DNA from: Candidatus Iainarchaeum sp.
Lineage (GTDB): Archaea > Iainarchaeota > Iainarchaeia > Iainarchaeales > JAFCCJ01
Length of the DNA stretch: 18,653 bases
Direction: 5' to 3'
Assembly: GCA_043816965.1 (NCBI GenBank)
Contig: JBDRHK010000097.1
Location: 1 to 18,653, forward strand
This document shows positions 2,601 to 18,572 of the stretch, piece after piece. The notes under the pieces were generated by a model. The model worked only from the letters and a program-made list of their open reading frames with translations. It did not search any database and was not told the origin of the DNA. Each line of letters starts with the position of its first letter. Position 1 is the first letter of the stretch. The translations under genes were made by a program, and so were the position numbers.

Positions 2601-2730
2601 GTTCACAACCCAACCGATGGATTCCCAGCAGATTTGCCTGTATTAAAGAACAATATACATATTATTAAATCTTACTTTTATTAATGAAAAAAATAATAGG
2701 GGGTCAGGGACCGCTTTGGGAGAAAAAATC
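2601..2730 (-). promoter_or_regulatory. AT-rich intergenic region: T-tracts after the GT-C stop (possible archaeal terminator) and TATA-like boxes for the LamG gene
   Basis: Minus strand reads GATTTTTTCT...TATTATTTTTTTCA downstream of the stop at 2731. TTTAATA occurs twice (2663-2669, 2641-2647). GGTTGTGA lies just before ATG 2600. Confidence 0.4.
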
Positions 2731-4506: not shown

Positions 4507-5496
4507 ATGAAGTCAGCAGGCATAGCTGCAACAGGCATATATGTGCCGGAAAAGGTTGTGACAAATAAGGATATTGAAAAGTTAATGGACACAAGTGATG
4601 AGTGGATTTGGGAGCATATAGGGATTAGGGAAAGGAGGTTTGCAAGGCCTGACCAGCCAACTTCTGACCTGGCCATAAGGGCGGGTGAACTTGCATTAAA
4701 GAATGCGGGAATAGGCGCAGATGAACTGGACATGATTTTTGTGGCTACCTGCAGCCCTGATATGTTCAGCCCTTCAACAGCCTGCATAGTGCAGGATAAG
4801 ATTGGTGCCGGGAATGCTGGCGCGGTTGATGTTAACAATGCCTGTACTGGCTTTGTTTACGGGCTTGAAATTGCATCCAAATTCATTGCTGATTCCAGCT
4901 CTAAGAATGTTCTGCTTATAGGTGCGGAAAAGCTTTCAGTTGCATTAAGCGTTAAGGACCGTTCAACATATGTCTTTTTTGCAGATGGTGCAGGGGCGGC
5001 AGTATTAAAAGAGGCAGAAAAGGGAACAGGCGTTATTGGCAGCTATCTCAGGGCAGATGGAAGCGGGGCAATGTATTTGGGAATCCCTGCAGGAGGGACT
5101 GCAATGCCCTCCACCCATGAAACACTGGATTCAGGAATGCATACAGTTAAAATGAACGGCGGGAAGATATGGGGCTTTGCGGTTAAGGCTTTTCCTGATG
5201 CCGTGCGAAAGGCACTGGAAAGGACAGGTTATTCTGTTGAGGATGTGGACATGATTATTCCCCATCAGGCCAATTACAACATTATAGTGGAGGGGATGAA
5301 AAAGCTTGGCCTGCCTATGGAAAAGACCCACACAAACATGGATAAATATGGGAATACTGTTTCGGCATCAATTCCTATAGCACTGCATGAAGCTGCTGAA
5401 CTTGGAAAGATAAAAAAAGGGGACTTGGTTGTGCTGGCTGGTTTTGGTGGGGGGCTTAGCTGGGGGGCCAATGTTATAAGGTGGGGTTGCAAATGA
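4507..5496 (+). CDS. fabH: 3-oxoacyl synthase III (FabH/KAS III family), copy 1
   Basis: DTSDEWI...GIRERR, catalytic Cys (NNACTGF), His (PHQAN), Asn (YGNTVSAS), GFGGGLSWG. Start moved from track TTG 4456 to ATG 4507 (MKSAGIAATGIYVP) to match the FabH N-terminus. Confidence 0.93.
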   Translation: MKSAGIAATGIYVPEKVVTNKDIEKLMDTSDEWIWEHIGIRERRFARPDQPTSDLAIRAGELALKNAGIGADELDMIFVATCSPDMFSPSTACIVQDKIGAGNAGAVDVNNACTGFVYGLEIASKFIADSSSKNVLLIGAEKLSVALSVKDRSTYVFFADGAGAAVLKEAEKGTGVIGSYLRADGSGAMYLGIPAGGTAMPSTHETLDSGMHTVKMNGGKIWGFAVKAFPDAVRKALERTGYSVEDVDMIIPHQANYNIIVEGMKKLGLPMEKTHTNMDKYGNTVSASIPIALHEAAELGKIKKGDLVVLAGFGGGLSWGANVIRWGCK

Positions 5497-6248
5497 TCTG
5501 GCCTGAGTTTGCGGGAAAGACAGCAATTGTTACAGGTGCGTCTGCCGGGATTGGGAGGGCAATTGCACTTTTACTGGGAAAAAACAGGGCAAATGTAATT
5601 GTGAACTATAATCAGAATAAGGAAAGGGCAGAAGAGGCAGTTAAGGAAATTGTTTCATTTGGAGGGAAGGCAATCGCGGTTAAGGCAGATGTTACAAAGG
5701 GGGGAGAGGTTGAAGAAATGGTAAAAAGGGGGTTGGATGAGTTTGGGGCAATTGATTTTTTAGTGAACAATGCAGGCATTACAGGGGATGCCACATTTAT
5801 TAAGATGGGAAAGGAACAGTGGCAAGAGGTTATTGATGTTAATTTGAACGGGACATTCAATTGCTGCAAGGCAGTTGTCCCAAAAATGGTTGAAAATGGC
5901 AAAGGAGGGGTGGTGAACATAGCTTCAATAAGTGCAGAAATTGGAAACTTTGGTCAGGCGAATTATAGCGCTGCAAAAGAAGGCGTTATTGGATTCTCCA
6001 GAACACTTGCACGGGAGCTGGCTGTTAAGGGCGTGAGGGTCAATGTGGTTTCCCCTGGATTTATTGACACCAAAATGAGCGAAAGCATACCGGATAAGAT
6101 AAGGGAGATGCTGATTATGCTGACTCCCTTGGGGAGAAAGGGCCGTCCTGAAGAGGTTGCAGAGGCAGTGCTTTTCATGCTTTCAGAAAGGGCAAGCTAT
6201 ATAACTGGGCAGGTGCTGGATGTAAACGGCGGATTCTATATGAGGTAA
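5493..6248 (+). CDS. fabG: 3-oxoacyl reductase, SDR family (FabG/PhaB-like)
   Basis: TGASAGIG, NNAG, catalytic S and YSAAK, PGFIDT, GQVLDVNGG. ATG 5493 overlaps the fabH stop (ATGA), indicating translational coupling. Confidence 0.92.
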   Translation: MIWPEFAGKTAIVTGASAGIGRAIALLLGKNRANVIVNYNQNKERAEEAVKEIVSFGGKAIAVKADVTKGGEVEEMVKRGLDEFGAIDFLVNNAGITGDATFIKMGKEQWQEVIDVNLNGTFNCCKAVVPKMVENGKGGVVNIASISAEIGNFGQANYSAAKEGVIGFSRTLARELAVKGVRVNVVSPGFIDTKMSESIPDKIREMLIMLTPLGRKGRPEEVAEAVLFMLSERASYITGQVLDVNGGFYMR

Positions 6249-6253
6249 TCTTG

Positions 6254-6859
6254 ATGAAAGTTCTGGGAATAAATGGAAGTCCAAAAAGCAAAGGCAATAG
6301 TGCTTTCTTATTGAATGAATGCTTGGAATCAGCCAAGAAAGAAGGGGCTGAAACTGAGATTATACATCTTGCAGATTACCGTATAAAAAAGTGTAATGGA
6401 TGTGACAGGTGCATTAAAGAAAAGAAGTGCAACCTTGATGATGATTACAAAATTATTGAAGAAAAAATGATTGAAGCTGATGCACTTGTGCTTGCTTCCC
6501 CGGTTTATGTCGGAAGCGTGAGCGGGCTTATGAAAGATTTTGGCGACAGGGCCAGGCCATTGCGCATGGATTCATTCAGGCTGAAGGATAAATTTGCGGC
6601 ATTTATTTCCGTGGCCGGTTTGAGGCATGGTGGGCAGGAACATGCATTCATATGGTTTATAGATTTCAGCCTCTACTCTGGCTTGATTCTCATCGGGAAT
6701 GCTGCAGATCCAGTAAGCCAAGGATATTTTCCCGCAGCCTCACTGCAAAGGGATGATGGCAACTTTAGTTTTGTAAAAAGAGACAGCCTGGCAATTGAGG
6801 AATCTGTGCAGTTGGGAAAGCGGATTGTAGAAATTCTGAAAAAGTTTAGATGTAAGTAA
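6254..6859 (+). CDS. Iron-sulfur flavoprotein (Isf-like; flavodoxin/NADPH-dependent FMN reductase fold)
   Basis: MKVLGINGSPKSKGNS FMN-binding loop, CNGCDRCIKEKKC = Cx2Cx2Cx5C Isf-type cluster motif, ASPVY, GGQE. ATG at 6254, GAGGT upstream. Confidence 0.88.
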   Translation: MKVLGINGSPKSKGNSAFLLNECLESAKKEGAETEIIHLADYRIKKCNGCDRCIKEKKCNLDDDYKIIEEKMIEADALVLASPVYVGSVSGLMKDFGDRARPLRMDSFRLKDKFAAFISVAGLRHGGQEHAFIWFIDFSLYSGLILIGNAADPVSQGYFPAASLQRDDGNFSFVKRDSLAIEESVQLGKRIVEILKKFRCK

Positions 6860-6980
6860 ATGAATGTTTTAGGCATTAATAGCGGTCTTGGGGGTGGAAG
6901 CAATACCTGGTTTTTTCTTGATGAATACATAAAGGCAGTTAGGGCGAATGTAGTACATTGCTTTTGGAAAAATAAAATTA
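6860..6980 (+). pseudogene. 5' remnant of a second flavodoxin/Isf paralog
   Basis: MNVLGINSGLGGGSNTWFFLDEYIKAV...HCFWKNKIKK aligns with MKVLGINGSPKSKGNSAFLLNECLESA...HLADYRIKK of the preceding gene. Similarity ends where the convergent MaoC stop lies (6978-6980), before the Cys motif. Confidence 0.65.
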
Positions 6981-7412
6981 AAAAGGCGCTTTCGCAGAAG
7001 CCCTGCCTTTTACTAACAATTCCCCCTTATGGTTTGTTATTGTGGTTTCAACATCCACATGCTTTTTCTCATAATTTTTGTTTGATATTTTTGCCTTAAC
7101 AGTTAATGTATCGCCAATCCTTGCCGGCCTTAGGAATTTTAAGTCTTGACTACGGTATATGTACCCATTTCCAGGCAACTTTGTTCCTAGCAGAGCAGAA
7201 ATCATTGCGCCCAGAAGCATCCCCTGGGCAACCTTCCCCTTGAAGATTGATTTCCTCGCAATCTCATCATCAAGATGTATTGGGTTGGTGTCCTGGCTCA
7301 CCTTTGCAAACTCTTCCAAATCCTTTTCCTCAACTGTCCTTTTCAGCGAGGCTGTTTCCCCAATCTGCAAATCTGCAAACGGCCTTATCTTGTATTTTGA
7401 TTCAGGAACCAT
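6978..7412 (-). CDS. MaoC-family (R)-specific enoyl-CoA hydratase/3-hydroxyacyl dehydratase (PhaJ-like), copy 1
   Basis: Hot-dog fold motif FAKVSQDTNPIHLD (catalytic D...H), GMLLGAMISALLGTKLPG, SQDLKFLRP..IGDTLT. Confidence 0.9.
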   Translation of the reverse strand: MVPESKYKIRPFADLQIGETASLKRTVEEKDLEEFAKVSQDTNPIHLDDEIARKSIFKGKVAQGMLLGAMISALLGTKLPGNGYIYRSQDLKFLRPARIGDTLTVKAKISNKNYEKKHVDVETTITNHKGELLVKGRASAKAPF

Positions 7413-7434
7413 GAAAAATCTATGATTGAAATAT

Positions 7435-7442
7435 TCTTAAAG
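7435..7442 (-). promoter_or_regulatory. TATA-like box for MaoC copy 1
   Basis: CTTTAAGA on the minus strand, 23-30 nt upstream of ATG 7412, no SD; fits a leaderless archaeal promoter. Confidence 0.4.
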
Positions 7443-7469
7443 AAATGTTATTGGGCAAATGGTTTGGGA

Positions 7470-7877
7470 CTAATCCATTAATTTTATTTCAGAACTTTCT
7501 TCCAACACAGCATCTCCGCTTTTTGTTTCGGCTTTTGAACTGCACGAAAGGGAGTTGTTCCTGCCCTGCCTGCACTCTAGTTTGAAAACTATTTTTTCAC
7601 CCAAAAAAACAGGTTTAATGAATTTTACATCGTGCCTAATCAGCTTGAAACTTCTTTTTAGATTCCTGCTGTAACGTGAATGTATATGGGCCACCAAAAG
7701 CACGCCGAAAACAGCCCTCCTCCCAAAAGCGGTTTTGCCTGCAAAATCCCTGTCTGCGTGAATTGGGTTAACATCACCGACCAAATTATTGAAAGCTTCA
7801 ACTTCTTTTGCTGTGAACTCCTGCATAAGTGAGTCTACTTTCCCTACCCTGAGCTCATCAAAGTTTTTTGTTTTCAC
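7470..7877 (-). CDS. MaoC-family dehydratase, copy 2 (divergent)
   Basis: FNNLVGDVNPIHAD..FA..T.FG, KFIKPVFLGE. GTG start. Confidence 0.82.
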   Translation of the reverse strand: MKTKNFDELRVGKVDSLMQEFTAKEVEAFNNLVGDVNPIHADRDFAGKTAFGRRAVFGVLLVAHIHSRYSRNLKRSFKLIRHDVKFIKPVFLGEKIVFKLECRQGRNNSLSCSSKAETKSGDAVLEESSEIKLMD

Positions 7878-7914
7878 ATTAGTATTTAATTTCGTAACTG
7901 ATTAAAAGATATAG
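7878..7914. promoter_or_regulatory. 37-bp bidirectional promoter region
   Basis: TATTTAAT (+, 7883-7890) is 25-32 nt before ATG 7915. CTTTTAAT (-, 7901-7908) is 24-31 nt before GTG 7877. Confidence 0.55.
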
Positions 7915-8952
7915 ATGGCCGGGGAAACCAAAATAAGGCAGTACAAGAAAGGGGATGAAGTCAGGATTAAAGAGCTTATTAAAAGCAGCTCAAGGCCGGT
8001 TACAATTCAGGAATGGAACTGGAGGTTTCTGGAGAACCCTTTTGGAGAGCCTATTATTCTTATTGCTGAAAGTCCGGATGGCGAATTGGTCGGGCATATA
8101 GGCGCATTCCCTATGGAATTGAAAATTGGGGAGACTATTGTCAAAGCATATCAGGCAATTGATTTTGTTGTATCGGAGGAATTTCGGGAAAAGGGCATTT
8201 TCACAAGGCTGTTCAGAAAAGGGCTTGAAATAGTCAGAAGAGAAAAGCTGCCCTCTTTTGGTTTTACCAATAGGGAGGCAATGAATGCGATTGGGAAAAA
8301 AACAAATCTCAGAAGTGTTCTTGGCATGCAGCAGTATGTCAAGCTGTTTAACTCTGTGCCTTTGTTAAAGCTGCTGGGAATTGAGCAGACTCCAAAATTC
8401 TTGAAAAAATCATTGGATGCCGTTGTGCAGATATTTTTTGGCGGTAAAGTTTCAACCAAGCCTCAAAAACTCAAATTTGAAAAAATAAAAGTGTTTGGGG
8501 CTGAGTTTGACCGGATTGCAGGGAAGATCGATGCAAATTACAATATGGCGGTTAAGAGAAGTTCGAAATACCTGAACTGGAGATTTGTGGGAAAACCGAA
8601 TAATAATTATGAGCTGTTTGCCATCAAAAAGGACAGGGTTTTGTTAGGATATGTGGTGCTGAAGCTTGGCAAAACCAGCGGGCAAATTGTTGACTTGTTT
8701 TTTAAGGAAGATGAATCTGTTCTTTTGGAAACTTTGGGTTTTTGTGAGGAATTCTTGAGGGGAAAGGGTAAAAGTTCAATTTCATTCGGGATTTATTGCA
8801 AGTGGGTTGAGGAAAGATTATTTGGGGCAAGGTATGTGAAAAATATTTTATCTGTGAAGCCCAGATTCTTTATTGATGATATACGTGCGCAAAGATTGGG
8901 TAAAAAATTAGGCCGGGCTTATTTAACAATAGGTGACACTGATTGGGCGTAG
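7915..8952 (+). CDS. Two-domain GNAT-family N-acyltransferase
   Basis: KIRQYKKGDE, WNWRFLENP, acyl-CoA-binding motif A DFVVSEEFREKGIFTRL, GFTN; second half RSSKYLNWRF..KP. This architecture is typical of GNATs in polysaccharide loci. Confidence 0.82.
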   Translation: MAGETKIRQYKKGDEVRIKELIKSSSRPVTIQEWNWRFLENPFGEPIILIAESPDGELVGHIGAFPMELKIGETIVKAYQAIDFVVSEEFREKGIFTRLFRKGLEIVRREKLPSFGFTNREAMNAIGKKTNLRSVLGMQQYVKLFNSVPLLKLLGIEQTPKFLKKSLDAVVQIFFGGKVSTKPQKLKFEKIKVFGAEFDRIAGKIDANYNMAVKRSSKYLNWRFVGKPNNNYELFAIKKDRVLLGYVVLKLGKTSGQIVDLFFKEDESVLLETLGFCEEFLRGKGKSSISFGIYCKWVEERLFGARYVKNILSVKPRFFIDDIRAQRLGKKLGRAYLTIGDTDWA

Positions 8953-8960
8953 GTGTTTGA

Positions 8961-10178
8961 TTGAGCGAAACAAAAAGGATTGCAAAAAACGGCCTCGTGC
9001 TTTTCATCGCTAACGGCTTTTCAAGGGCAGTTTCCATTGTCCTGGTAATTTACTTCATCCACCTTGTTGGTGCAACAGTCTTTGGGACCTACAGCTTTGC
9101 ACAGGCATTTGTTTCTGTCTTTGTTGCCTTTACCGCTCTTGGCCTGAACAACCTAACCATAAGGGAGGTCGCAAAAGATTACCGCCAGGCGGGAAAATAT
9201 CTGGGGAATTTATTTCCCCTAAAGGCGGCAATATCGACGGTTATTCTGATTTTGATTCTTTATTCTGCATTACTTCTAAAGCTTCCTTTTGAAACAATTG
9301 TTGTTATTATCCTGCTTGCCCTTGCAGGGATTGTCAACGCACTTGCAGACATATTCAGGGCACTTTTCCGGGCCTTTGAGGAATTTGCCATTGAATCAGT
9401 TGCAGGCATCTCCTCAAGCCTGGTTGGTTTTGCGGCCGGAATTATTTTATTATATTATGGGTTTGGGATAACTGGCTTGGTCTTTGCCCTGCTTCTCGCA
9501 TCTGTAACAGATTTTATCCTGCAAATGGCATTTCTCGGAAAGATTAGGGCGGAAATTAAAATTGAATTTGATTTCAGCTTCTGGAAGAGTACCCTGAAAT
9601 CTGCGGTGCCTTTTGGCATGGTTATTTTAATGTTTGCGGTTTATTTTTCGGTTGATGTTTTCATTTTAAAATTTCTGCGTGGGGAAGAGCTCCTTGGATT
9701 CTACACCATAGCATACAACATGGTGCTTGCAATTTCAATTCTTCCTCAGGCTTTTGCAACCTCGACTTTCCCTTTCTTTTCCCGCAATCAGGAAGGGGAT
9801 GCGGAAAAAAACGAAAGAATTCTTTCAAAAAGTTTGCTATTGTCTGTTTTGGCCGGACTTGTGTTCGCCCTGGTTCTTTTTATTTTTGCGCAGGATATTG
9901 TGGTTCTTTTGTTCGGGACTGGATTCGGGGAAACAATATCTGTGCTTCAGATTATCTGCTGGGGCCTTGTCCTGCTTTTCCCGGGAATAATCCTTATAGG
10001 CTATATGAGCGCAACCGGCAGAAATAATGTCCTTGCTATTTTGCTCCTTGCGGTTACGGCGATAAACACTGCCCTTGACTTGTTGCTTATTGGCGATTTT
10101 GGGCTTTTGGGCGTGGCATCGGCAACCGTTTTCAGCCAAATCATTTTATTCATTTTACTATTGTATTTTAAGAGGTGA
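8961..10178 (+). CDS. Wzx/MOP-superfamily oligosaccharide flippase
   Basis: RIAKN, FGTYSFAQAF..F..LGL...IREVA, D.FIL..LRG...LGFY..AY, FPFFSR, NTALDLLLI..FGLLG.A.ATV; highly hydrophobic. TTG start with AGGTG upstream. Confidence 0.9.
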   Translation: MSETKRIAKNGLVLFIANGFSRAVSIVLVIYFIHLVGATVFGTYSFAQAFVSVFVAFTALGLNNLTIREVAKDYRQAGKYLGNLFPLKAAISTVILILILYSALLLKLPFETIVVIILLALAGIVNALADIFRALFRAFEEFAIESVAGISSSLVGFAAGIILLYYGFGITGLVFALLLASVTDFILQMAFLGKIRAEIKIEFDFSFWKSTLKSAVPFGMVILMFAVYFSVDVFILKFLRGEELLGFYTIAYNMVLAISILPQAFATSTFPFFSRNQEGDAEKNERILSKSLLLSVLAGLVFALVLFIFAQDIVVLLFGTGFGETISVLQIICWGLVLLFPGIILIGYMSATGRNNVLAILLLAVTAINTALDLLLIGDFGLLGVASATVFSQIILFILLLYFKR

Positions 10179-10183
10179 ATTGG

Positions 10184-10975
10184 TTGTGTGATTTTTGTGT
10201 TGAGCATGGGGAAGGTAAAAAATGGTACCTTAATGCCCACAATTATAGCAAGGAGCTCGCAAGAAAGAAAAAGCTTGAGAACTATGATTCCCTCCATCTT
10301 TTTATGGACCAAAAGCTGGGGGAAATCGGCCTGAAGTTCATGCTTACAAGGCCCATCTTAAGGCACTATGCAAATGATTTCTACACCAAGCACCATTCAG
10401 GGCAGATAATTCCTCTTGACGATGCATTGGAAATATTGGACATAGCCGGTGACTTTCGGCTGTTTGATTGCCCCTGTGAAAAATTAATTGACGGGGTAAG
10501 CAGCAAAAAATGCCTTATGCTTGGCCCCAAATCCGACAGGATGAATAGCCTTAGCAAAGAGAAGTCAGAGATTCTTGACAGGGAGGATATTGAAAATTAT
10601 CTTAGAGGATTCAATGAGAAGGGATTGGTGCATTCTGTATGGACTTATGGGGTCCCATATATCGGGTGCATCTGCTCCTGTGACAGCGAACGGTGCTTGG
10701 CGGTTATAGGCAGGAATAAGTTTGAAAAATATGGTGTCAATACAACAATCAAAAAATCAGAATACCTTGCGTCGGTCGATGAAAAAAGGTGCATTGGCTG
10801 CGGGTTTTGTGTGGAGAAATGTGCCTTTGGGGCGATAGAAATAAATCAGGGCGGAAAGGCCGAAATCAATATGGAAAAATGTTATGGCTGCCTGAACTGC
10901 GTTTCTGCATGCAACCGAAAGGCAATTTCTCACAAATCAAGGGAAGATGTTCCTGATTTTGAGGGAAAATGGTAA
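10184..10975 (+). CDS. Multi-cluster Fe-S protein with C-terminal 2x[4Fe-4S] ferredoxin domain
   Basis: CIGCGFCVEKC and CYGCLNCVSAC motifs, plus extra Cys groups (N-terminal CDFCVEH, CPC..C, CICSCDSERC). Start moved to TTG 10184, 5 nt after GAGGTGA (10172-10178). Confidence 0.82.
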   Translation: MCDFCVEHGEGKKWYLNAHNYSKELARKKKLENYDSLHLFMDQKLGEIGLKFMLTRPILRHYANDFYTKHHSGQIIPLDDALEILDIAGDFRLFDCPCEKLIDGVSSKKCLMLGPKSDRMNSLSKEKSEILDREDIENYLRGFNEKGLVHSVWTYGVPYIGCICSCDSERCLAVIGRNKFEKYGVNTTIKKSEYLASVDEKRCIGCGFCVEKCAFGAIEINQGGKAEINMEKCYGCLNCVSACNRKAISHKSREDVPDFEGKW

Positions 10976-10977
10976 AA

Positions 10978-12465
10978 TCATATTTTGGCTGAGTTTTTTA
11001 TTTTTCGCATTGCGCTGAAAAAATTAATTTCAAGTCTGGGGCTTATTGAGAAAAGAATTTTCGAGATATGGTAAGTGGAAAGGGAAAGGGAAAACTGCAA
11101 AATTCCTTGGCTGTTTTTTATGTTGTGTGAAACGATAAAATCGACTGTCTTCCCATACTCATTCTTCGCCTCTTCAGGATAGGTAAAAAATATATCGAGA
11201 AGAATCGGGGGATAGTGGTAGAAATTTTTTTGGAAGACAGGGATTTCCTCTGATTCTACAAAATATTTTTTTTCTTCCGAGTTCCACCATCCATCAAATC
11301 TGTTCTTACTCCTGTATTCCTCAAAAAGTTTGGAGCCGGGAAAGGGGGTAAGGACATATGAGGGGGTGAAATTGCTTACATATGGGGAAATCTCACTCAT
11401 AAACTCCCTTGTTTTTTTGATATCCTTGGCATTCTCCCAGGGGAAGCCGAGGATGAAGTTTGCATTTGCAGCAATCCCTGCGTTTTTTGTCAGAATTAGG
11501 GCATCCCTCGTCTGCTGAAGGGAAATCCCTTTCCGGATTTTTTCAAGTGTTTTTGGGTTTCCGCTCTCAAGGCCATAGGTTATTGAACCGCATCCCGCAT
11601 TCTTCATTTTTTTAAGGAGTTCGAAATCAACTTTATCAACCCTTGTTGCGCAGTGCCATTTAATTTTGAGATTTTTATTAAGAATTAATTTGCAAAGTTC
11701 CATCACTCTTTCCCTATTGAAGCTGAATGAGTCATCGGTGAAGTAAAATATTTCAGTGCCATAGCGTTTCCTGTATTCTTCAATCTCTTTCATGACTTTT
11801 CCTGCAGACATGAACCTGAATCTTTTCCCCTGGACTAGGGAGGTTGCGCAGAAAATGCAGTTGTATGGGCAGCCTCTGCTTGAGTTGATTACTGCAAAAT
11901 TGGAACTCGCTCTTTTTGATTTTGCATAATCTTTTTCATTGAAGAGGTCTATTGCAGGAAATGGGAGGCTGTCGAGGTTTTCTATTGGCGGCCTTGCGGA
12001 ATTGCCAATGACTTTTTTCCCTTTCCTGAAGCTGATTCCCAAAATATTTTCCAGTTTTTTTTCGCCTCTTGCGAAATCAATAAGCTCTGCAAATGTCTCT
12101 TCCCCCTCACCCCTTACAACAACATCAAATCCTCTTTCCAGGGATTCCTGGGGAAGGATTGTTGGGTGCGGTCCGCCCGCTATCTTCAGTGCAGGTGAAT
12201 CTGCCAATAAATTAATCATCTTAAGTGCCTGGCTTGCATAGAGGGTGTTTACCGAAACACAGACAATGTCAGGCCTGAATGAGTCCACGGAATTCAATAT
12301 ATCCTTATCAGAGTATTCCGCATATCTTGCTGAGAGGTCGATTGTTTTTATTTCGCAGTTTTTTTCCCTTGCAACTGCGGCAAGATAGGCAAGGCCCAGA
12401 GGAGGGGAAAAATGTCCGGAGTTTTCCTTCGGGTGAATGAAAAAAACTTTTGTTTTGCCTGGCAT
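10978..12465 (-). CDS. Cobalamin-binding radical SAM enzyme (class B methyltransferase-like)
   Basis: N-terminal B12 domain (PPLGLAYLAA, GGPHPT, VVRGEGE), SRGCPYNCIFC CxxxCxxC, GLESG, FILGFPWE, TPFPGS. Start likely ATG 12465 (AGGGA upstream) rather than track 12498. Confidence 0.92.
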   Translation of the reverse strand: MPGKTKVFFIHPKENSGHFSPPLGLAYLAAVAREKNCEIKTIDLSARYAEYSDKDILNSVDSFRPDIVCVSVNTLYASQALKMINLLADSPALKIAGGPHPTILPQESLERGFDVVVRGEGEETFAELIDFARGEKKLENILGISFRKGKKVIGNSARPPIENLDSLPFPAIDLFNEKDYAKSKRASSNFAVINSSRGCPYNCIFCATSLVQGKRFRFMSAGKVMKEIEEYRKRYGTEIFYFTDDSFSFNRERVMELCKLILNKNLKIKWHCATRVDKVDFELLKKMKNAGCGSITYGLESGNPKTLEKIRKGISLQQTRDALILTKNAGIAANANFILGFPWENAKDIKKTREFMSEISPYVSNFTPSYVLTPFPGSKLFEEYRSKNRFDGWWNSEEKKYFVESEEIPVFQKNFYHYPPILLDIFFTYPEEAKNEYGKTVDFIVSHNIKNSQGILQFSLSLSTYHISKILFSISPRLEINFFSAMRKIKNSAKI

Positions 12466-12473
12466 AAAAATCC

Positions 12474-13592
12474 CTATGGTTTGAATTTCCTTACGCAATC
12501 CATTACTCGTCCCATATCCCCATCAGTTAAGTCAGGAAAGAGCGGGAGAGTAAGCAGTCTTTTCCACACGCTGCCGGCAACCGGTGTTGAGCCTGCAATG
12601 CCCATTTTTTTGTAGAGAGAATGCAGGTAAATCGGTTTGTAATGCACAGAGCTTGAAATGCCGTTTTCAGCGAGATGTGCAATCAATCTGTCACGGGTTT
12701 TTTCATCATTCATTTTAATGACATAATTGTGGTTCGAACTTTTAACATAACTTCTTTTAGCAGGAATCTCAAGCCAGTTCAATTTGGAGAAGGAATCATT
12801 GTACTGTTTGGTTATTTCCCTGCGTTTTTTGTTGGCAACATCCAGCTTTTTCAGCTGAATCAGACCTATTGCCGCAGCCAAATCATTCATATGGTATTTG
12901 AATCCCAACTCAGTAACATCATAATGCCATTTGTAATTTTGATTGTCCCTGGAGAAGGTATCCTTGTCAATTCCAAGCCAGCTTAGCAATTGCAGCCTTT
13001 CTGCAATCTCCTTGTTGTTTGTGGTTATCATGCCCCCATCACCTGTTGATAGGTTTTTAACCCCGTGGAAACTGAAACATCCGATTTCGCCCAAATTTCC
13101 CGCCATCATTCCCCTGTATTCTGCACCACATGCATGGGCGGCATCTTCTATAACAAATAATTCATTCTCCTTTGCGATTTCATTCAATTCATCCATCTCA
13201 CAGGGGTGGCCGCCATAATGCACAGGAATAATTGCCTTTGTTTTTTCCGACATTTTTTTTCTTATATCATCAGGGCTGATGTTCAAAGTATCTGGTTGAA
13301 TATCGGCAAAAACCGGGGTTGAATTATTGTAAAGAATTGAGTGGATTGTTGAAACAAATGTAAGGGGCGTGGAAATTACCTCGCCCTTATCAACATCCAG
13401 TACTTTCAATGCGAGATGCAATGCCGCGGTTCCTGAATTGGTTGCAACAGCATATTTTGTTCCGATAAATTCCGCAAATTTATTCTCAAATTCCTTAACC
13501 CTTGGGCCACAAATAACATAACCGCTCTCAATTACTTTTCTCACGGCATTAGCCTCTTCTTCCCCCATGGATGGCCTGAAAACAGGAATCAT
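12474..13592 (-). CDS. DegT/DnrJ/EryC1/StrS-family PLP-dependent sugar aminotransferase
   Basis: NSGTAALHLAL, TFVST, PVHYGG, IEDAAHA, PLP-lysine motif SFHGVKNLSTGDGG, LGFKYHM, LTLPLFP. Confidence 0.94.
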   Translation of the reverse strand: MIPVFRPSMGEEEANAVRKVIESGYVICGPRVKEFENKFAEFIGTKYAVATNSGTAALHLALKVLDVDKGEVISTPLTFVSTIHSILYNNSTPVFADIQPDTLNISPDDIRKKMSEKTKAIIPVHYGGHPCEMDELNEIAKENELFVIEDAAHACGAEYRGMMAGNLGEIGCFSFHGVKNLSTGDGGMITTNNKEIAERLQLLSWLGIDKDTFSRDNQNYKWHYDVTELGFKYHMNDLAAAIGLIQLKKLDVANKKRREITKQYNDSFSKLNWLEIPAKRSYVKSSNHNYVIKMNDEKTRDRLIAHLAENGISSSVHYKPIYLHSLYKKMGIAGSTPVAGSVWKRLLTLPLFPDLTDGDMGRVMDCVRKFKP

Positions 13593-13596
13593 ACAA

Positions 13597-14535
13597 TCAC
13601 TTCAATAAAAATTGATTTGAAATTATTTTAAGCAGTTCAGTGTCACTAATCTTCCTACTTTCCTGTATTATTTCCCTTTTTTTGAGGATTTTCGGCAAAT
13701 CCTTCATTGCATCAAATTTGGCCTTTGCCACGCTGAAATTTCCCTTAAGTGTGTTTAATGCAAGAATGCCAAATTGGAGGGGAACAATCCAAACCAAATT
13801 TCTCAGGAGAATTCCGCGCGGGAAATTTTTTGTAATAAACCAGATTATGTTTCTTTCAACCAGGTATTTTTTGAAATTGTCCTTTTTGTTGACTGTTACA
13901 GAGCCCTTGTGGAAAACGACTGCCTCTTTTGCGAGGGATACATTCCAGCCCCTGAGCAATGCCCTTATGCTTATGTCTGCATCCTCAAAATAAATGAAGA
14001 AATCATTGTCATAAATCCCCTCTTTTTGCCTTATATCCTCAAGCATTTCCCTGCGATAGAGACATGCACAGTCATCAACGCCGAACAGTTTTCCATCGCC
14101 CTTAAGCTCGAGTGGGTAGCCGGATTTAATGAGTTTCAGGCCGATTGTGTCTATTTCGTTTGAGCCTGTGCGCAGGATTTTGCTTCCCACCAGCCCAATT
14201 TTTTTATTCTTTTCAACTTTTTTCACTAATTCTTCCAGCCAATTTCTGTCTGCAACAGCATCATTGTTCAACATTGCTACATAACTTCCCATGCTTTTTT
14301 CAATCCCAATATTGTTTGCAGCAGCAAATCCCTCATTAGTTTTATTTCTTATTATTTTAACTCCTGGAAATTTATTTTTCACAAGTGCAATTGAATTATC
14401 TTTTGAGGCATTATCTACAAGAATAATTTCTGTTTTTTTGTGGGTCTGGTTGGAAAGGGAGGAAAGGCATTCCTCCAAAAGGTTTTCCCCGTTGTAATTC
14501 ACAACAATCACTGAAATTAATTTTTCTCTTTTCAT
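13597..14535 (-). CDS. Family 2 glycosyltransferase (WbbL/rhamnosyltransferase-like subgroup)
   Basis: ISVIVVNYNG, LVDNASKD, NEGFAAANNIG, LNNDA, FFIYFEDADIS.R, VFH. Start likely ATG 14535. Confidence 0.92.
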   Translation of the reverse strand: MKREKLISVIVVNYNGENLLEECLSSLSNQTHKKTEIILVDNASKDNSIALVKNKFPGVKIIRNKTNEGFAAANNIGIEKSMGSYVAMLNNDAVADRNWLEELVKKVEKNKKIGLVGSKILRTGSNEIDTIGLKLIKSGYPLELKGDGKLFGVDDCACLYRREMLEDIRQKEGIYDNDFFIYFEDADISIRALLRGWNVSLAKEAVVFHKGSVTVNKKDNFKKYLVERNIIWFITKNFPRGILLRNLVWIVPLQFGILALNTLKGNFSVAKAKFDAMKDLPKILKKREIIQESRKISDTELLKIISNQFLLK

Positions 14536-14540
14536 ACAAA

Positions 14541-15662
14541 TCATTTTCCTTTCAGTTCATTTTCATACATTTCATTTATCTCGTTCGCGGCATTGGCCCA
14601 TGAAAAATTCTCCGCAGACTTTAGCGCATTCTTTCCCATTTCACTTCTTAACAAATTATTTTTCAGGAGTTTTTTTATTGTGGCTGCAAGTTTCTCCGAA
14701 TTTTTTTCCTCCACAAGCAGGCCGTTTTTTTTATCGTCAACTATGTAGGGGATTCCGCCTGATTTTGTCGCAACAACCGGCTTTCCGCAGGCAAATGCCT
14801 CCGGGATTACAAAGGGCATGAGCTCTGCATCCGCATAGGAGGGAAGGACAAGGAAAAATGATTCATTATATGCCTTTGCAAGTTCCTTTTCCCCTAAAAA
14901 ACCCTTGAATTCCACTGTGCCATTCAAACCCAAACTTTGGGAATAATTTTTGTAATGGTTAAAGAGGTTTCCTTCCCCTGCAACCAAAAGTTTTGTTTCC
15001 GGGAATTCATCTTTAACCAGTTTCATTGCCTCCAGAAGGTAGTTGAAGCCCTTCCATTGCTGCGATTTCGAGAGGGCGCCTACAAAAAGCAAATGCCTCT
15101 CGCAGGAATTGGTTTTCCTGAACATTTTCCGATCAAGGCCTGGGGAGAAGAAGAAAAGTTTTTTCCTGAAACCAGATAAAAATCCTGAATTTTCAAGCCC
15201 CTTGTTGTAAACTACAATCTTTCTTGCCAGGTTTAATGTAATTCCCTTTAGGGAATTCTCATAGATAGAGGAAAGCAAATTTTTTCTTTTATCTATCCTG
15301 CGGAAGGTGAATGTGTTGTAACTGAGGAAGAAGGGGATTTTGTTTTTTCTTGCTGCAAGGGCGGCAATGTCTGCGTAAAACGGAACTGGTGTAAAAGCCT
15401 GCACAAGGTCAAAGTCTTTTTTCAGGAGCCGGTCTAAGGTAAAAAATAAATTGAATTTAATCGGGGTGTTGGAAATAAGGAAATCAGGTTTTGTTGTAAT
15501 TAATTCAAACCCGTCCTGCATTGTTGTTGTGTTCTCATTTCCTGAGACAACTACAGTAACATTATGGCCTTTTCGGGAGAATTCCTTTGCAAGGTTTAGA
15601 ACTATTCTCCCCACACCGCCCCCGTCAGGATATATGTAGGGGCTTACAAACAAAAGTCTCAT
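14541..15662 (-). CDS. Family 4 glycosyltransferase (GT-B), copy 1
   Basis: YIYPDGGGV, LLFVG.L....WKG, PS..AELMPFVIPEAFACGKPVVAT..GGIP, NGLLV; Ex7E retained. Confidence 0.92.
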   Translation of the reverse strand: MRLLFVSPYIYPDGGGVGRIVLNLAKEFSRKGHNVTVVVSGNENTTTMQDGFELITTKPDFLISNTPIKFNLFFTLDRLLKKDFDLVQAFTPVPFYADIAALAARKNKIPFFLSYNTFTFRRIDKRKNLLSSIYENSLKGITLNLARKIVVYNKGLENSGFLSGFRKKLFFFSPGLDRKMFRKTNSCERHLLFVGALSKSQQWKGFNYLLEAMKLVKDEFPETKLLVAGEGNLFNHYKNYSQSLGLNGTVEFKGFLGEKELAKAYNESFFLVLPSYADAELMPFVIPEAFACGKPVVATKSGGIPYIVDDKKNGLLVEEKNSEKLAATIKKLLKNNLLRSEMGKNALKSAENFSWANAANEINEMYENELKGK

Positions 15663-15738
15663 ATTACCTGCCTTCTAATTTATAGAAACGGCAAAAGCTT
15701 TTTCTAATCGTCATATTTCATTTTATAGGGGATAATTT

Positions 15739-16686
15739 ATGAAAGCTGAAATAAGGGCTATAGGGACATATGCGCCAGAAAGGGTGCTTTTGAATGAGGA
15801 ACTTATCGGGATTAAGGGAATAAACACTTCAGATGAGTTCATAAGGGAGAAGTTTGGGGTCAGGGAGAGAAGGGTTGCGGAGAATGAGAATACCTCTGAT
15901 TTGGGTGTGAAATCTGTTGAAATTGCGCTTAAAAAAGCAAATATGAAAAAAGAGGATTTGGATGCAATAGTTGTTGCAACAATGACTCCGGATTTACAGT
16001 GCCCTTCCACTGCTTGCATAATTCAGGAAAAACTCGGGCTAAAGGGGATTCCCGCCTTTGACCTCAGTGCCTTTTGCTCAGGATATGTATATGGTTTGGA
16101 TACAGTAGCAAGGATGTTAGATAACAGGATGAAAGGGGATTCCTACAAAAATATTGCATTTGTGACAGCTGAAAAAATGTCTGGGATTTTGGATTATTCT
16201 GACAGAACTGTTTCCCCCATTTTTGGGGATATTGGCTGCACCACAATTGTGTCAAAGAGTGAAAAGGATAAGGTGATTTCCTCCTACCTTTACGCAGACG
16301 GTTCTGGGAAAGATGCGCTAATTATTCCTGAGGGGGGGAGATATTTGAAAATGGAGGGCAAGGATGTTTATGATTTTGCAACCGAGCTTTTCCCAAAACT
16401 TGTTAAGGAAACTTTAAGAAAGGCAGAAATGCACCTGGATGATGTGGACTGGATATTTCCGCATCAGGCAAATGTGAACATAATCAAAAAAGGTTTGGAG
16501 GCCCTGGGTCTGGGGATGGAGAAAACTTTCTTGAACATGGATAAGTATGGGAATACTGCTGCTGCATCAATTCCGCTTGCAATTGGTGAGGGGATTGAAA
16601 AGGGAAAGGTAAAACGCGGGGACATCCTGCTTTGCGTCGGTTTTGGTGCAGGCTGGACTGGTGGGGGAATTGTTTTAGAATTCTGA
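15739..16686 (+). CDS. fabH: 3-oxoacyl synthase III (FabH/KAS III family), copy 2
   Basis: NTSDEFI...GVRERR, catalytic Cys (SAFCSGY), His (PHQAN), Asn (YGNTAAAS), FGD, GFGAGWT. Confidence 0.9.
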   Translation: MKAEIRAIGTYAPERVLLNEELIGIKGINTSDEFIREKFGVRERRVAENENTSDLGVKSVEIALKKANMKKEDLDAIVVATMTPDLQCPSTACIIQEKLGLKGIPAFDLSAFCSGYVYGLDTVARMLDNRMKGDSYKNIAFVTAEKMSGILDYSDRTVSPIFGDIGCTTIVSKSEKDKVISSYLYADGSGKDALIIPEGGRYLKMEGKDVYDFATELFPKLVKETLRKAEMHLDDVDWIFPHQANVNIIKKGLEALGLGMEKTFLNMDKYGNTAAASIPLAIGEGIEKGKVKRGDILLCVGFGAGWTGGGIVLEF

Positions 16687-16691: not shown

Positions 16692-17804
16692 TTAAATGCT
16701 TCTTTCGTAAATCTGCTCTATTTCTTTTGCGGTATTGCTCCAGCTGTATTTTGCTACAGAGTTAAGGGCATTCTTCCCTAAAATTTCCGGAATCCTGCTG
16801 TCCCTCAAAATAAGTTCCATCATGTCTGCGATTTCGATGGGTTTCTGGGGATTTACAAGAAGGCCATTGTGCCAACGGTCGATTATGTATGGAATTCCAC
16901 CGACACTTGAAGCAATAACTGGCTTTCCGCAGGCAAATGCTTCTGTAATGACAAAGGGCATGAGTTCTGCATTAGTAAAAGAAGGCGCAACCAATGAATG
17001 GCACTTGTTGTAAGTTTCTGCCAATTTCCTATCATTTAAAAAGCCAAGGAAATCAACATTGTTTTCAATCCCTAATTTCCTGGAAATGGTTTTGAAATGG
17101 TCCAATGAATCCCCTGTGCCTGCAACCTTAAGCCTTGCCCTTAAGCCTCTGGACTTCAGGATTTTAATTGCCTTTAGCAGATGGGAAAGGCCTTTCCATT
17201 TCTGTTTTCGATTCAGGGTTCCGACAAAAAGAAAATAATCTGCGGAACGGGAAGTTGGATAAAAAACTTCCTTGTCGATTCCAGGATGGACAAATTCGGT
17301 CTTGTTGCGGTGCATGCTAAGGGCATCTGATTCAGAGAGATTTTTATTGTAAAGGATTATTTTCTTTGCAGAATTGAGGGTGAATCTCTCAAAGGTTTTT
17401 TGATAGAGATAAATTAAGGGGTCAAGAAATATTCCTTTTCCTCTCAAATCAAAGGTATTATAGCTGAGAAAGAACGGGATTTTGTTTTTTCTTGCAGCAA
17501 TTGCAGCCATATCTGCAAAGAAGGGCACAGGAGTAAATGCCTGAACCAAATCATAATCATTTTCCCTAATAAGATGGTTGAGTTTTGGCAGAAGGCCAAG
17601 ATTCAGCGGAGTGTTCTTGAATTTCAATCTTGATTTCAGGAAATGGAAATCAATTCCCCTGATGTTTGCACTTGCATTGTGGTCCCCATTGCACACAACA
17701 GAAACACTGTTCCTTTTGGAAAGTTCCTTTGCAAGTTTGTATGCAAACCTGCCCACTCCGCCCCCTTCTGGATGGATGTAGGGGCTAACGAAAAGAATCT
17801 TCAT
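16692..17804 (-). CDS. Family 4 glycosyltransferase (GT-B), copy 2, paralog of 14541-15662
   Basis: YIHPEGGGV, FLFVG.L....WKG, AELMPFVITEAFACGKPVIAS..GGIP. ATG overlaps the stop of the upstream GT2 (17801-17804). Confidence 0.92.
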   Translation of the reverse strand: MKILFVSPYIHPEGGGVGRFAYKLAKELSKRNSVSVVCNGDHNASANIRGIDFHFLKSRLKFKNTPLNLGLLPKLNHLIRENDYDLVQAFTPVPFFADMAAIAARKNKIPFFLSYNTFDLRGKGIFLDPLIYLYQKTFERFTLNSAKKIILYNKNLSESDALSMHRNKTEFVHPGIDKEVFYPTSRSADYFLFVGTLNRKQKWKGLSHLLKAIKILKSRGLRARLKVAGTGDSLDHFKTISRKLGIENNVDFLGFLNDRKLAETYNKCHSLVAPSFTNAELMPFVITEAFACGKPVIASSVGGIPYIIDRWHNGLLVNPQKPIEIADMMELILRDSRIPEILGKNALNSVAKYSWSNTAKEIEQIYERSI

Positions 17805-18478: not shown

Positions 18479-18498
18479 GTAATGAAAAGGGCGTGCAG

Positions 18499-18513: not shown

Positions 18514-18572
18514 CCTTGGGGAGGATAGGAAACAAATAAATAAACTTGGAGAATAACTTATTCGGCGATAGG

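Follow-up and report, generated by a model that had tools for sequence, protein, structure and literature searches.

What can bacterial-type genes of fatty acid synthesis be doing in the surface-glycan locus of an archaeon, with no acyl carrier protein (ACP) beside them? The question is raised by a stretch of 18,653 nucleotides from Candidatus Iainarchaeum sp. (contig JBDRHK010000097.1 of assembly GCA_043816965.1), called the window below, which is the entire contig C97 of genome G000. Between positions 4507 and 16686, genes for two FabH-type 3-ketoacyl-ACP synthases III (KAS III), a FabG-type reductase and two MaoC hydratases are interleaved with genes for a tandem GNAT N-acyltransferase, a Wzx flippase, a DegT-family aminotransferase and glycosyltransferases (GTs). 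We regard it as probable, if well short of certain, that these genes serve to build an acyl group of short or medium length on coenzyme A (CoA), without a carrier protein, for the N-acylation of an amino-sugar in an archaeal surface-glycan locus. The 17 open reading frames (ORFs) of the window were scanned with Pfam and NCBIfam; those of the central part are the following.

4507–5496, plus strand: FabH1, KAS III (NF006829 391.7 bits, cut-off 249; TIGR00747 352.1 bits, cut-off 292.1; an ORF from TTG 4456 is also possible)
5493–6248, plus strand: FabG-type 3-ketoacyl reductase of the short-chain dehydrogenase/reductase (SDR) family (adh_short_C2 1.4e-69; a GTG start at 5481 is also possible)
6251–6859, plus strand: FMN_red-family flavoprotein with a CX2CX2CX5C motif, probable Fe-S flavoprotein (PF03358 6.3e-33)
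6978–7412, minus strand: MaoC-a, (R)-specific hydratase/dehydratase (PF01575 8.6e-23; D-x-N-P-I-H)
7470–7877, minus strand: MaoC-b, second hot-dog hydratase (PF01575 6.4e-13; D-x-N-P-I-H)
7915–8952, plus strand: tandem (double) GNAT N-acyltransferase of 345 amino acids (Acetyltransf_9 4.4e-10)
8961–10178, plus strand: Wzx/MOP-family flippase (Polysacc_synt 2.2e-31), starting 9 nt 3' of the GNAT gene
10175–10975, plus strand: 266-residue protein, Cys-rich in its N-terminal part and with 2x[4Fe-4S] in its C-terminal part (Fer4 families), overlapping the Wzx stop
10978–12498, minus strand: B12-binding radical SAM enzyme, class B (PF04055 and PF02310; no NCBIfam model over cut-off)
12474–13592, minus strand: DegT-family sugar aminotransferase (PF01041 5e-119)
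13597–14544, minus strand: GT2 glycosyltransferase (PF00535 7.9e-35)
14541–15662, minus strand: GT4 glycosyltransferase (PF00534 5.5e-39)
15739–16686, plus strand: FabH2, second KAS III (NF006829 317.9 bits, TIGR00747 301.5 bits, same cut-offs)

A preliminary description of this DNA, made from its letters alone, had noted that FabH and FabG are coupled, and the overlap of the FabG ATG (5493) with the FabH1 TGA (5494–5496), an ATGA, is directly visible in the sequence. The genes that it named were correct, but the flavoprotein (6251–6859) and the 4Fe-4S protein (10175–10975) had been overlooked.

Archaeal origin of the window

The window comes from a DPANN (Iainarchaeota) archaeon; that the glycosylation locus looked archaeal was already part of the preliminary description. 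Genome G000 (1.34 Mb in 109 contigs, completeness 86.2%, contamination 1.4%) encodes STT3/AglB (74 bits, contig C105), which among the 14 control genomes is confined to the four archaea, and a geranylgeranylglyceryl phosphate synthase (150 bits, contig C50). The composition of C97 is typical of the bin, with a tetranucleotide distance ranking 26th of the 54 contigs of at least 8 kb and a GC content of 0.420, the bin having 0.4245. In databases, the named relatives of both FabHs carry the label 'Candidatus Diapherotrites archaeon'.

Absence of carrier protein and carboxylase genes

No room is left for an ACP gene in the central part of the window, where the largest uncovered gaps measure 118, 76, 57 and 37 nt, and the sole ORF of ACP size (6860–7099, plus strand, 79 amino acids, overlapping MaoC-a) has no Pfam match at E ≤ 10. 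A hidden ACP was rejected: neither this ORF, nor four other small ORFs of the window, nor two unexplained ORFs of G152, a genome of the same genus, match PP-binding at E ≤ 10. A six-frame search of G000 with PP-binding (PF00550) gave no match, and G000 likewise has no match to ACPS (PF01648), Acyl_transf_1/FabD (PF00698), ketoacyl-synt (PF00109), Carboxyl_trans (PF01039) or Biotin_carb_C (PF02785). Each of these families was found in 10 to 14 of the 14 control genomes. The lack of ACP, reported earlier for the locus, holds for the whole assembly, in which the holo-ACP synthase AcpS, FabD, FabF/B and acetyl-CoA carboxylase (ACC) were not found either.

In a phylum set of 215 genomes from 79 genera, PP-binding occurs in four genomes (G068, G131, G160 and G164, three of them over the cut-off), ACPS in four (G068, G069, G160 and G164) and Carboxyl_trans in two (G199 and G204, one over the cut-off); none of the three is present in any of the eight FabH-bearing genomes of the phylum (completeness 63–92%). 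The searches for FabD, ketoacyl synthase and biotin carboxylase covered G000. ACP and AcpS matches lie within about 0.5–2.3 kb of each other in G068 (locus L026), G160 (L024, G160:C13:33745–36861, adjoining an FkbH_N-like gene) and G164 (L025, adjoining an HMGL-like gene), so the searches do detect a carrier system where the phylum has one. These ACP–AcpS pairs are part of another cassette, which depends on a carrier, and the genomes that hold it lack the FabH module.

Conservation of the acyl module

FabH1, searched against the phylum set at E ≤ 1e-20, matches eight genomes from four genera (G000, G152, G165, G110, G109, G107, G076 and G077). Six of them carry a FabH1-type gene (54–75% identity), while G076 and G077 hold only a FabH2-like gene, 60–62% identical to FabH2. 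By tblastn and Pfam analysis of the loci, the core FabH1–FabG–flavoprotein–MaoC–MaoC is present in all six FabH1-bearing genomes. The GNAT gene comes next in the five whose contig reaches that far, and these five have glycosylation genes within 10 kb. The order is FabH1–FabG–FMN_red–MaoC–MaoC–GNAT in G000, G152 and G165, and FabH1–FabG–PNPOx-like–MaoC–MaoC–GNAT in G110 and G107; the contig of G109, 4.6 kb long, shows this second order as far as it reaches. Every locus of sufficient length has an AglJ-like GT2, GT4s, Wzx, a GT-C-like or PMT_2 protein, a LamG protein and sulfatases nearby; homologues of the AglJ-type GT2 (17801–18652) adjoin the module in G165, G110 and G107. All genes are intact and colinear across the four genera, at 42–89% protein identity. 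The core arrangement is more than chance, and the recurrence of the acyl genes with glycosylation genes in relatives, which the preliminary description had proposed as a check, is borne out. With an archaeal contig, no ACP and FabD in the genome and this co-occurrence, its reading of the locus as an acyl supply survives.

The surroundings of the core vary. Directly upstream of FabH1, G165 has a radical SAM-SPASM (rSAM-SPASM) gene and an ECH_1 crotonase, and its locus also holds a methyltransferase, a FemAB-like protein, DegT and FabH2; further along its contig of 78.7 kb come a FlaI/TadA-like pilus ATPase and numerous ORFs that match no family. IorA-like and IorB-like subunits stand upstream of FabH1 in G110 and G107 (TIGR03336 in G107, 628 bits against a cut-off of 650.9), and an IorB-like subunit and an rSAM-SPASM gene are visible on the contig of G109; of these three genomes, the rSAM-SPASM gene and a 124-residue ORF upstream of FabH1 are annotated only in G107 and G109. 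Fused 2-oxoacid:ferredoxin oxidoreductases of the IorA type (600–621 residues) lie beside this FabH clade in Iainarchaeota, Altiarchaeota and Bathyarchaeia, and are accompanied by an IorB-like subunit in the Iainarchaeota loci L022 and L021. The IorA/IorB-type loci are at L022 12500–15258, L020 11840–13648, L021 3674–4240, L041 3136–4962 (Altiarchaeota) and L039 7537–9402 (Bathyarchaeia). Such a neighbour points to a primer acyl-CoA made at the locus.

In G076 and G077 a thiolase (acetyl-CoA C-acetyltransferase) gene follows directly 3' of the FabH2-like gene (L023 124–5341; L011); in G076 this pair is preceded by AsnB and a methyltransferase and followed by an N-acetyltransferase of the AAC(3) type. 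Built on FabH2, the arrangement may represent another type of cassette for acyl decoration. Crotonase (G165), IorAB (G110, G107), thiolase (G076, G077), a 3-hydroxyacyl-CoA dehydrogenase (L140) and an AMP-binding ligase (L178, both metagenome loci described below) are all CoA-specific enzymes, and their presence in related loci would favour a CoA-only mode of working.

The Altiarchaeota locus L041 (3136–11958) holds a different acyl cluster, with an IorA-like protein, a B12-binding radical SAM enzyme (B12-rSAM), FabG (52%), MaoC (47%), a member of the HpaB/4-hydroxybutyryl-CoA-dehydratase family, a 4HBT thioesterase and two tandem FabHs, with no glycosylation genes in view. G152 has an extra ORF of 135 amino acids between MaoC-b and GNAT (L018 8463–8870), with a faint similarity to hot-dog thioesterases (E 0.007–0.1), which the window lacks. 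The cluster has sulfatase genes next to it in G152 (L019, G152:C16 10937–12223) and G107 (L022 69–1076), and FabH1 has rSAM-SPASM genes next to it in G165, G109 and G107; the latter could encode anaerobic sulfatase maturases and have no part in acyl synthesis.

FabH1 and FabH2

Both FabHs exceed the curated cut-offs given above, and their best structure matches are canonical FabH crystal structures or models. The Cys-His-Asn triad is found in both translations, and its residues C113, H253 and N283 are invariant in a FabH alignment (A1). KAS III enzymes with this triad form a carbanion by decarboxylating a malonyl-type thioester. KAS III-like acyltransferases, which do exist, carry Cys-His-Asp instead, ChlB3 having Cys113, His296 and Asp301 (PMC9573744).

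An acyltransferase of that type was rejected for FabH1 and FabH2, because their triad is Cys-His-Asn. This bears on a wider proposal, which we hold to be very unlikely, that the FabHs are not condensing enzymes here, but either acyl-CoA-dependent acyltransferases or a recently transferred, poorly functional bacterial fragment in need of malonyl-ACP. It would account for the lack of a malonyl source, ACP and FabD, for the patchy presence in 8 of 215 genomes, and for the 50–57% identity of FabH1 to ordinary FabHs of Negativicutes, Clostridia and Actinobacteria. It is opposed, besides the triad, by the intact and colinear genes of four genera and by the position of FabH1 in a mostly archaeal clade, which argues for long retention under selection.

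That position was taken from a maximum likelihood tree of a chosen sample of 50 rows, midpoint-rooted and made up of 7 Iainarchaeota locus genes, 8 FabH2 database relatives, 18 genes from scan loci and 17 named bacterial hits, other hits being excluded. FabH1 groups with two Altiarchaeota copies (98/91) and, with weaker support (92/79), these are joined by sequences from Sphaerochaeta (L107), Bacillota, Planctomycetota, L140, Bathyarchaeia and marine group II (MGII). The 17 ordinary bacterial FabHs fall apart from this group (87/96, drawn open). FabH2 has eight database relatives at 60–89% identity, the next being at 45% or less, and forms with them a 100/100 clade on a stem of 0.58 that, judged by the sequences sampled, is specific to Iainarchaeota/Diapherotrites.

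The scan loci came from a search of named genomes with A1, of which the best 80 loci of 251 relatives were kept; its patterns include HQAN[IY]NII and bias the list toward one sequence type. By title, these 80 comprise three Candidatus Iainarchaeum loci and the G109 contig ('archaeon'), 10 Bathyarchaeia or Bathyarchaeota, one Altiarchaeota, four bacteria, and 61 loci titled as MGII, Poseidoniales, Thalassarchaeaceae, Euryarchaeota, Methanobacteriota or Thermoplasmatota archaeon. Among them, about 45 MGII/Poseidoniales loci besides L048 have an SDR gene at a conserved 4.5–6.1 kb upstream of FabH. In L048 (MGII), the one of these loci that was annotated, FabH is preceded by genes for a formyltransferase-like protein, the SDR, a luciferase-like protein, asparaginase II and an aldehyde dehydrogenase, in this order. 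A phylogenomic study of 2017 is said to have reported fatty-acid-synthesis genes in MGII.

The residue two after HQAN is Asn in FabH1 and FabH2 of the window and in G152, G109 and G107, and Lys in the FabH2-like protein of G077. Of the top 120 FabH1 homologues, 79 have Arg here and 35, for the most part the nearest hits, have Asn; Ile and Val occur once each, and four lack the motif. The position is presumably that of the key ACP-docking Arg of E. coli FabH, which the mainly archaeal clade of FabH1 mostly lacks, and the Asn is suggestive of relaxed ACP docking in FabH1 and FabH2. In BioZ the docking patch is formed by four basic residues (PMC8024396), one of whose positions is compared here.

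Reductase, hydratases and redox proteins

FabG scores 295.7 bits with TIGR01830, just under the cut-off of 297.75, and 260.6 bits with the acetoacetyl-CoA reductase model TIGR01829, also below cut-off. MaoC-a reaches 145 bits, below cut-off, with the enoyl-CoA hydratase subfamily NF006045, and NCBIfam matches of the MaoC proteins to HadA/HadB are weak. The D-x-N-P-I-H core is kept in both MaoC proteins of the window, while the second copy lacks the motif in G165, G110 and G107.

The CX2CX2CX5C motif of the flavoprotein is common to its best Protein Data Bank (PDB) match, 7d38 ('Cd1'), the only one that this search gave; a label as Isf was considered and rejected. A PNPOx-like flavoprotein occupies the same slot in G110, G109 and G107 (PNPOx_N in L021 and L020), so that the slot is always filled by a flavoprotein, of varying family, and a radical SAM enzyme is always nearby. 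From this arrangement, the flavoprotein may be either an enoyl reductase surrogate or an electron donor for the radical SAM enzyme. The 4Fe-4S protein, a probable redox partner, belongs to a widespread uncharacterised family of about 270 residues, and its N-terminal part matched no named family in the PDB sequence search or the Atlas. Its only orthologue in the loci is in G152 (55%), and the pair of B12-rSAM and 4Fe-4S genes is common to G000 and G152 only. B12-rSAM genes also adjoin FabH in L041, L140 and L143; the enzyme of the window is probably a C-methylase or a rearranging enzyme, with either the sugar or the acyl chain as its substrate.

With these proteins, each of the four activities that an elongation cycle requires has a candidate among the conserved core genes, the flavoprotein always being in the same slot, and there are two condensing enzymes. 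The locus might thus encode an ACP-free miniature fatty acid synthase, running a full reductive cycle on CoA esters, with the GNAT attaching a medium or long chain as a lipid tail. The product would then not be a small decoration but a lipoglycan or lipoprotein anchor, with its tail on the glycan, a lipid head group or a protein amine. Such a synthase would be in keeping with the second MaoC motif lost in three genomes, as in heterodimeric long-chain dehydratases (HadAB), and CoA-based fatty acid synthesis has been shown in Sulfolobus (bioRxiv 10.1101/2024.07.05.601840). We nevertheless find it unlikely. FabH-type enzymes normally perform the first condensation only, and no elongating ketoacyl synthase (PF00109) is present in G000; the flavoprotein could equally be the reductant of the radical SAM enzyme that always accompanies it; and the absence of a malonyl source would weigh even more heavily on repeated condensations.

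A more far-reaching version, quite unlikely in our estimation, is that an ACP- and biotin-free fatty-acyl synthase operates in Iainarchaeota, and perhaps also in the wider clade of archaeal FabHs, made up of two KAS III enzymes, a ketoreductase, a MaoC heterodimer and the Fe-S flavoprotein as enoyl reductase, with an extender from a route other than ACC and an NMT-like GNAT that lipidates the surface glycan or protein. The IorAB-type oxidoreductase beside FabH is a speculative candidate for this non-carboxylase route. If that version were true, a DPANN archaeon would be making and using its own fatty acyl chains.

The tandem GNAT

The AlphaFold model of the GNAT (16 sequences; pLDDT 89.2, pTM 0.89) has two GNAT domains. 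Foldseek placed eukaryotic N-myristoyltransferases (NMTs) at the top (E about 2e-15, TM about 0.6), and comparison of the model with 48,161 chains by VIA-align gave the following neighbours.

NMT: Z 22.9 over 313–315 residues, r.m.s.d. 4.4–4.5
Eis-type tandem GNATs: Z 20.5–22.1, r.m.s.d. 3.0–3.9
Glucosamine N-acetyltransferases: Z 19.8 and 18.6
MshD: Z 16.1
HisAT: Z 14.6
FemA/FemX: Z 11–12

These neighbours either N-acylate amino-sugars (Eis, the glucosamine N-acetyltransferases, MshD) or use fatty acyl-CoA (NMT). The match to NMT, which would suit a lipid-attaching enzyme at the end of a miniature fatty acid synthase, lies within about 1–2 Z units of the Eis-type acetyltransferases, whose r.m.s.d. 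is lower, and the Pfam NMT family (PF01233) is matched at only E 0.036 (14.4 bits, cut-off 25). Because the Eis-type enzymes are tied with NMT and the Pfam match is below threshold, the name NMT is unjustified and was rejected; the honest label, as far as the model goes, is a putative tandem-GNAT N-acyltransferase.

Context discriminates the function of the GNAT better than structure matches do. Fifteen database relatives fall within the length range, and a scan of named genomes with the GNAT as single query found no relative. Since their broad alignment (A2) has no conserved stretch for a metagenome scan, a narrower one (A3) was used, from which 80 loci of 286 relatives were kept; neighbours were counted, by tblastn with the window proteins, in the 45 loci of at least 6 kb. 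DegT is the commonest neighbour (18 loci), followed by GT4 (6), B12-rSAM (4), Wzx (3), FabH (2) and FabG (2). Three loci, annotated with Pfam, illustrate the surroundings:

L178: PIG-L, PseB-type dehydratase (339 bits), DegT, CMP-sugar synthetase, an unknown protein, GNAT, glyoxalase, AMP-binding ligase
L140: C-methyltransferase, cupin, CMP-sugar synthetase, NeuB, FabH (54% to FabH1), 3-hydroxyacyl-CoA dehydrogenase, GNAT, then NeuC-type epimerase, PIG-L, PglD-like acetyltransferase, Wzx, B12-rSAM, methyltransferase, B12-rSAM
L127: 2-oxoacid dehydrogenase E1 alpha and beta, DegT, methyltransferase, an unknown protein, GNAT, PIG-L, UDP-sugar dehydrogenase

L178 and L140 place the GNAT family inside pathways of the PseB/DegT/CMP-synthetase/NeuB type, and the gene content of L140 reads as a CoA-based supply of 3-hydroxybutyryl groups for N-acylating a nonulosonic acid. 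The preliminary description had the GNAT acylate the amino-sugar made by DegT; this gains support from the DegT counts and from these amino-sugar and nonulosonic-acid pathways, while the acceptor itself is one that we infer.

A different acceptor would be a protein or peptide amine, such as that of the N-terminus or of a lysine in the neighbouring LamG protein, glycosylation then being a separate pathway to the same protein. NMT-type enzymes are defined by a C-terminal catalytic arrangement, with the C-terminal carboxylate in the active site, and have a long pocket for acyl-CoA; D341, five residues from the C-terminus of the GNAT, is invariant in A2. The double-GNAT fold of the NMT type would fit such a role, as would the LamG protein kept beside the cluster in G152, G165 and G107 and the loci of G110 and G107 in which DegT was not seen. 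Double-GNAT proteins of this type have been reported from archaea and bacteria by structure search (PMC12219266). The dominant neighbours of the GNAT family are, on the other hand, DegT and sugar-nucleotide enzymes, and in the window Wzx starts only 9 nt after the GNAT gene, which makes protein acylation highly improbable to us.

The amino-sugar

DegT, the tandem GNAT, the GT2 and GT4 enzymes and Wzx lie together in one locus, as expected of a module for amino-sugar N-acylation. DegT is closest to the C4-aminotransferases PseC, ArnB and WecE (TIGR03588 355 bits, NF008658 318 bits, all below cut-offs). A nonulosonic acid was rejected as the sugar in G000: the only hit to the NeuB family (49.7 bits) is a 3-deoxy-D-arabino-heptulosonate 7-phosphate synthase (TIGR01361 290.8 bits, cut-off 267.75), and G000 has no PseB-type dehydratase, the best PF02719 score being 75 bits. 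G000 does encode RmlB/GMD-type (GDP_Man_Dehyd) enzymes, with 279, 220, 191 and 186 bits, on contigs C38 (two copies), C26 and C105. Given these enzymes, the lack of NeuB and PseB and the C4-aminotransferase relatives of DegT, a 4-amino-4,6-dideoxyhexose would be the most economical guess.

Proposed pathway and its difficulties

On the preferred reading of an acyl-CoA supply for amino-sugar N-acylation, FabH1 would condense an acyl-CoA primer with a malonyl-type thioester to a 3-ketoacyl-CoA, in the manner of the ACP-independent NphT7, and FabG would reduce this to a 3-hydroxyacyl-CoA. The acetate-CoA ligase of G000 (below) could supply acetyl-CoA. The MaoC pair could dehydrate the 3-hydroxyacyl-CoA to a 2-enoyl-CoA, whose double bond the Fe-S flavoprotein may reduce, unless it only feeds electrons to the radical SAM enzyme, and FabH2 may add a second C2 unit. 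DegT would make the amino-sugar from a keto-sugar, the dehydratases being encoded elsewhere in G000, and the tandem GNAT would move the acyl group from CoA onto the amino group of the nucleoside diphosphate (NDP)-amino-sugar; methylation is the probable task of the B12 radical SAM enzyme. GT2 and GT4 would then build the glycan on a dolichyl-phosphate carrier, Wzx would flip it, and AglB (C105) or the GT-C-like neighbour would pass it on to an acceptor at the surface, which might be the neighbouring LamG protein. While the content, order and coupling of the genes, their archaeal origin, the absence of ACP, AcpS, FabD, FabF and ACC from the assembly, the conserved core and the linkage of GNAT with DegT are observed, the chemical steps, the chain length, the acceptor and the final target ('surface proteins' in the preliminary description) are inferred from the genes.

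A number of observations weigh against this pathway, foremost the lack of a malonyl extender source: carboxyltransferase is found in none of the eight FabH genomes and biotin carboxylase not in G000, and still both FabHs keep the decarboxylating triad. A malonyl-CoA synthetase was considered and rejected, the only AMP-binding enzyme of G000 being an acetate-CoA ligase (856 bits, cut-off 729). Nor were IorAB, crotonase or a true thiolase found in G000 by tblastn (E ≤ 1e-5, 40% coverage); the thiolase of G076 has a single match there, of 24.7% identity, on C103. Candidates for the extender source are malonyl-CoA derived from a host, a new route, or genes in the unassembled 14%, and all absences from G000 refer to an assembly that is about 86% complete. 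Two MaoC proteins, a flavoprotein and a second FabH exceed the needs of a 3-hydroxybutyryl group. FabH is rare beside the wider GNAT family, in 2 of the 45 loci. On the sugar side, DegT is outside the conserved core and was not seen in the fetched 15–20 kb of G110 and G107, no NDP-sugar dehydratase is encoded in the window, nor NeuB in G000. The docking-residue argument is weak, because FabH1 has Arg at this position in G165 and G110, the role of the residue is presumed, and the scan loci were chosen with a pattern containing Asn.

Comparison with known systems

N-acyl amino-sugars with a dedicated acyl supply are already known from bacteria, and ACP-independent fatty acid chemistry from archaea. 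Bacterial K and O loci make N-(3-hydroxybutanoyl) amino-sugars with dedicated transferase genes, in Acinetobacter K loci on Fuc3N, Qui3N, QuiNAc4N, pseudaminic and legionaminic acid (PMC3726653, PMC9676051). Our locus resembles such O-antigen and capsule N-acylation modules in combining a DegT-type aminotransferase, a dedicated N-acyltransferase, GTs and Wzx, those modules likewise using an acyl group other than acetyl (same sources). In the Sphaerochaeta locus L107, a cluster of DegT, WbpA/B-like and LbH-acyltransferase genes ends in FabH–FabG; there and in the metagenome locus L140, a FabH of the Asn type occurs with a ketoreductase in a cluster like the bacterial modules. Unlike these, our locus has a DPANN host with dolichol/AglB-type machinery, an acyl donor from a five-gene module (FabH, FabG, flavoprotein, two MaoC) and a second FabH, a 345-residue tandem GNAT as transferase, and no NeuB- or PseB-type gene in the genome.

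For FabH1, the proposed mode of working has its analogue in NphT7 of Streptomyces sp. CL190, a KAS III relative that condenses malonyl-CoA and acetyl-CoA decarboxylatively without ACP (PMC5432608); yet FabH1 and FabH2 match canonical FabH best. NphT7 serves the mevalonate pathway, and in G000 a source of malonyl-CoA was not found.

The fatty acid synthesis (FAS) of Sulfolobus acidocaldarius employs a thiolase/DUF35 complex, an SDR reductase, a MaoC dehydratase and an enoyl-CoA reductase of the medium-chain dehydrogenase/reductase (MDR) family (bioRxiv 10.1101/2024.07.05.601840; PMC3533463). Common to both are an SDR ketoreductase with an (R)-specific MaoC and no ACP, the intermediates in Sulfolobus being CoA-bound; condensation there is non-decarboxylative, whereas here it would be by a bacterial-type KAS III. 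Those authors found no decarboxylating condensing enzyme, and FabH goes unmentioned in both texts. The window contains no thiolase of such a complex (DUF35 itself was not searched for), and its Pfam scan, which covered the window and not the genome, gave no MDR-family enoyl-CoA reductase; the candidate reductase is a small flavoprotein, and the genes lie in a glycan locus. Bacterial FAS II (FabH, FabD, FabG, AcpP, FabF, FabZ, FabI, AccABCD) is close in the sequences of FabH and FabG, but ACP, AcpS, FabD, FabF/B and ACC were not found here, and MaoC stands in place of FabZ/FabA. The ACP–AcpS cassette of other genomes of the phylum, by contrast, has its own carrier protein and AcpS.

In the literature searched we found no account of the five-gene module with two KAS III enzymes, of its archaeal clade, or of an ACP- and carboxylase-free occurrence in DPANN archaea. 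If the preferred reading is true, archaea have acquired KAS III enzymes from bacteria and use them with CoA thioesters only, which would add a decarboxylating route to an archaeal ACP-independent acyl chemistry so far shown only with thiolases. FabH, FabG, the MaoC pair and the tandem GNAT would make a compact toolkit for non-acetyl acylation of amino-sugars. The lack of a carboxylase in the eight FabH genomes raises the question of the extender, whose answer could reveal a new route to malonyl-CoA or a host metabolite. Genome-reduced DPANN archaea are usually viewed as biosynthetically poor; here, one would be investing about 17 genes in an elaborate surface glycan, with a bearing on host attachment and virus evasion.

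Flanking genes and further observations

The remaining ORFs of the window flank the central part on either side.

3–2606, minus strand: large surface protein with LamG/Big_3 domains (Laminin_G_3 1.8e-18), open at the contig end
2731–4401, minus strand: 556-residue membrane protein, GT-C-like by predicted structure only (no Pfam family)
16692–17804, minus strand: GT4, paralogue of 14541–15662 at 46% identity (PF00534 6.9e-35)
17801–18652, minus strand: GT2 of the AglJ/dolichyl-phosphate hexose transferase type (TIGR04182 112 bits, NF041391 71.6 bits, both below cut-offs), open at the contig end

The GT-C gene of the preliminary description is indeed GT-C-like by predicted structure, but lies outside the range of 4507–16686 in which it was placed. 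The Atlas model of this protein has TM values of 0.66–0.76 to clusters carrying PMT_2, STT3 or Dpy19, and homologues are kept beside FabH1 in G152 (78%), G165 (31%) and G107 (33%); it is a candidate for a transferase using a polyprenyl-phosphate-linked sugar. The LamG surface protein is a possible target of the glycan, and its homologues flank the cluster in G152, G165 and G107 by tblastn synteny (in L022 for the last). Three paralogous matches to it lie on contig C40 of G000 (42224–48835).

Rfam and tRNA scans found no RNA genes in the window. Five more B12-binding radical SAM paralogues, 28–36% identical to the copy in the window, are encoded on contigs C104, C1, C105, C59 and C92 of G000, a high number for a genome of 1.34 Mb, and several of these contigs also hold glycosyltransferases.

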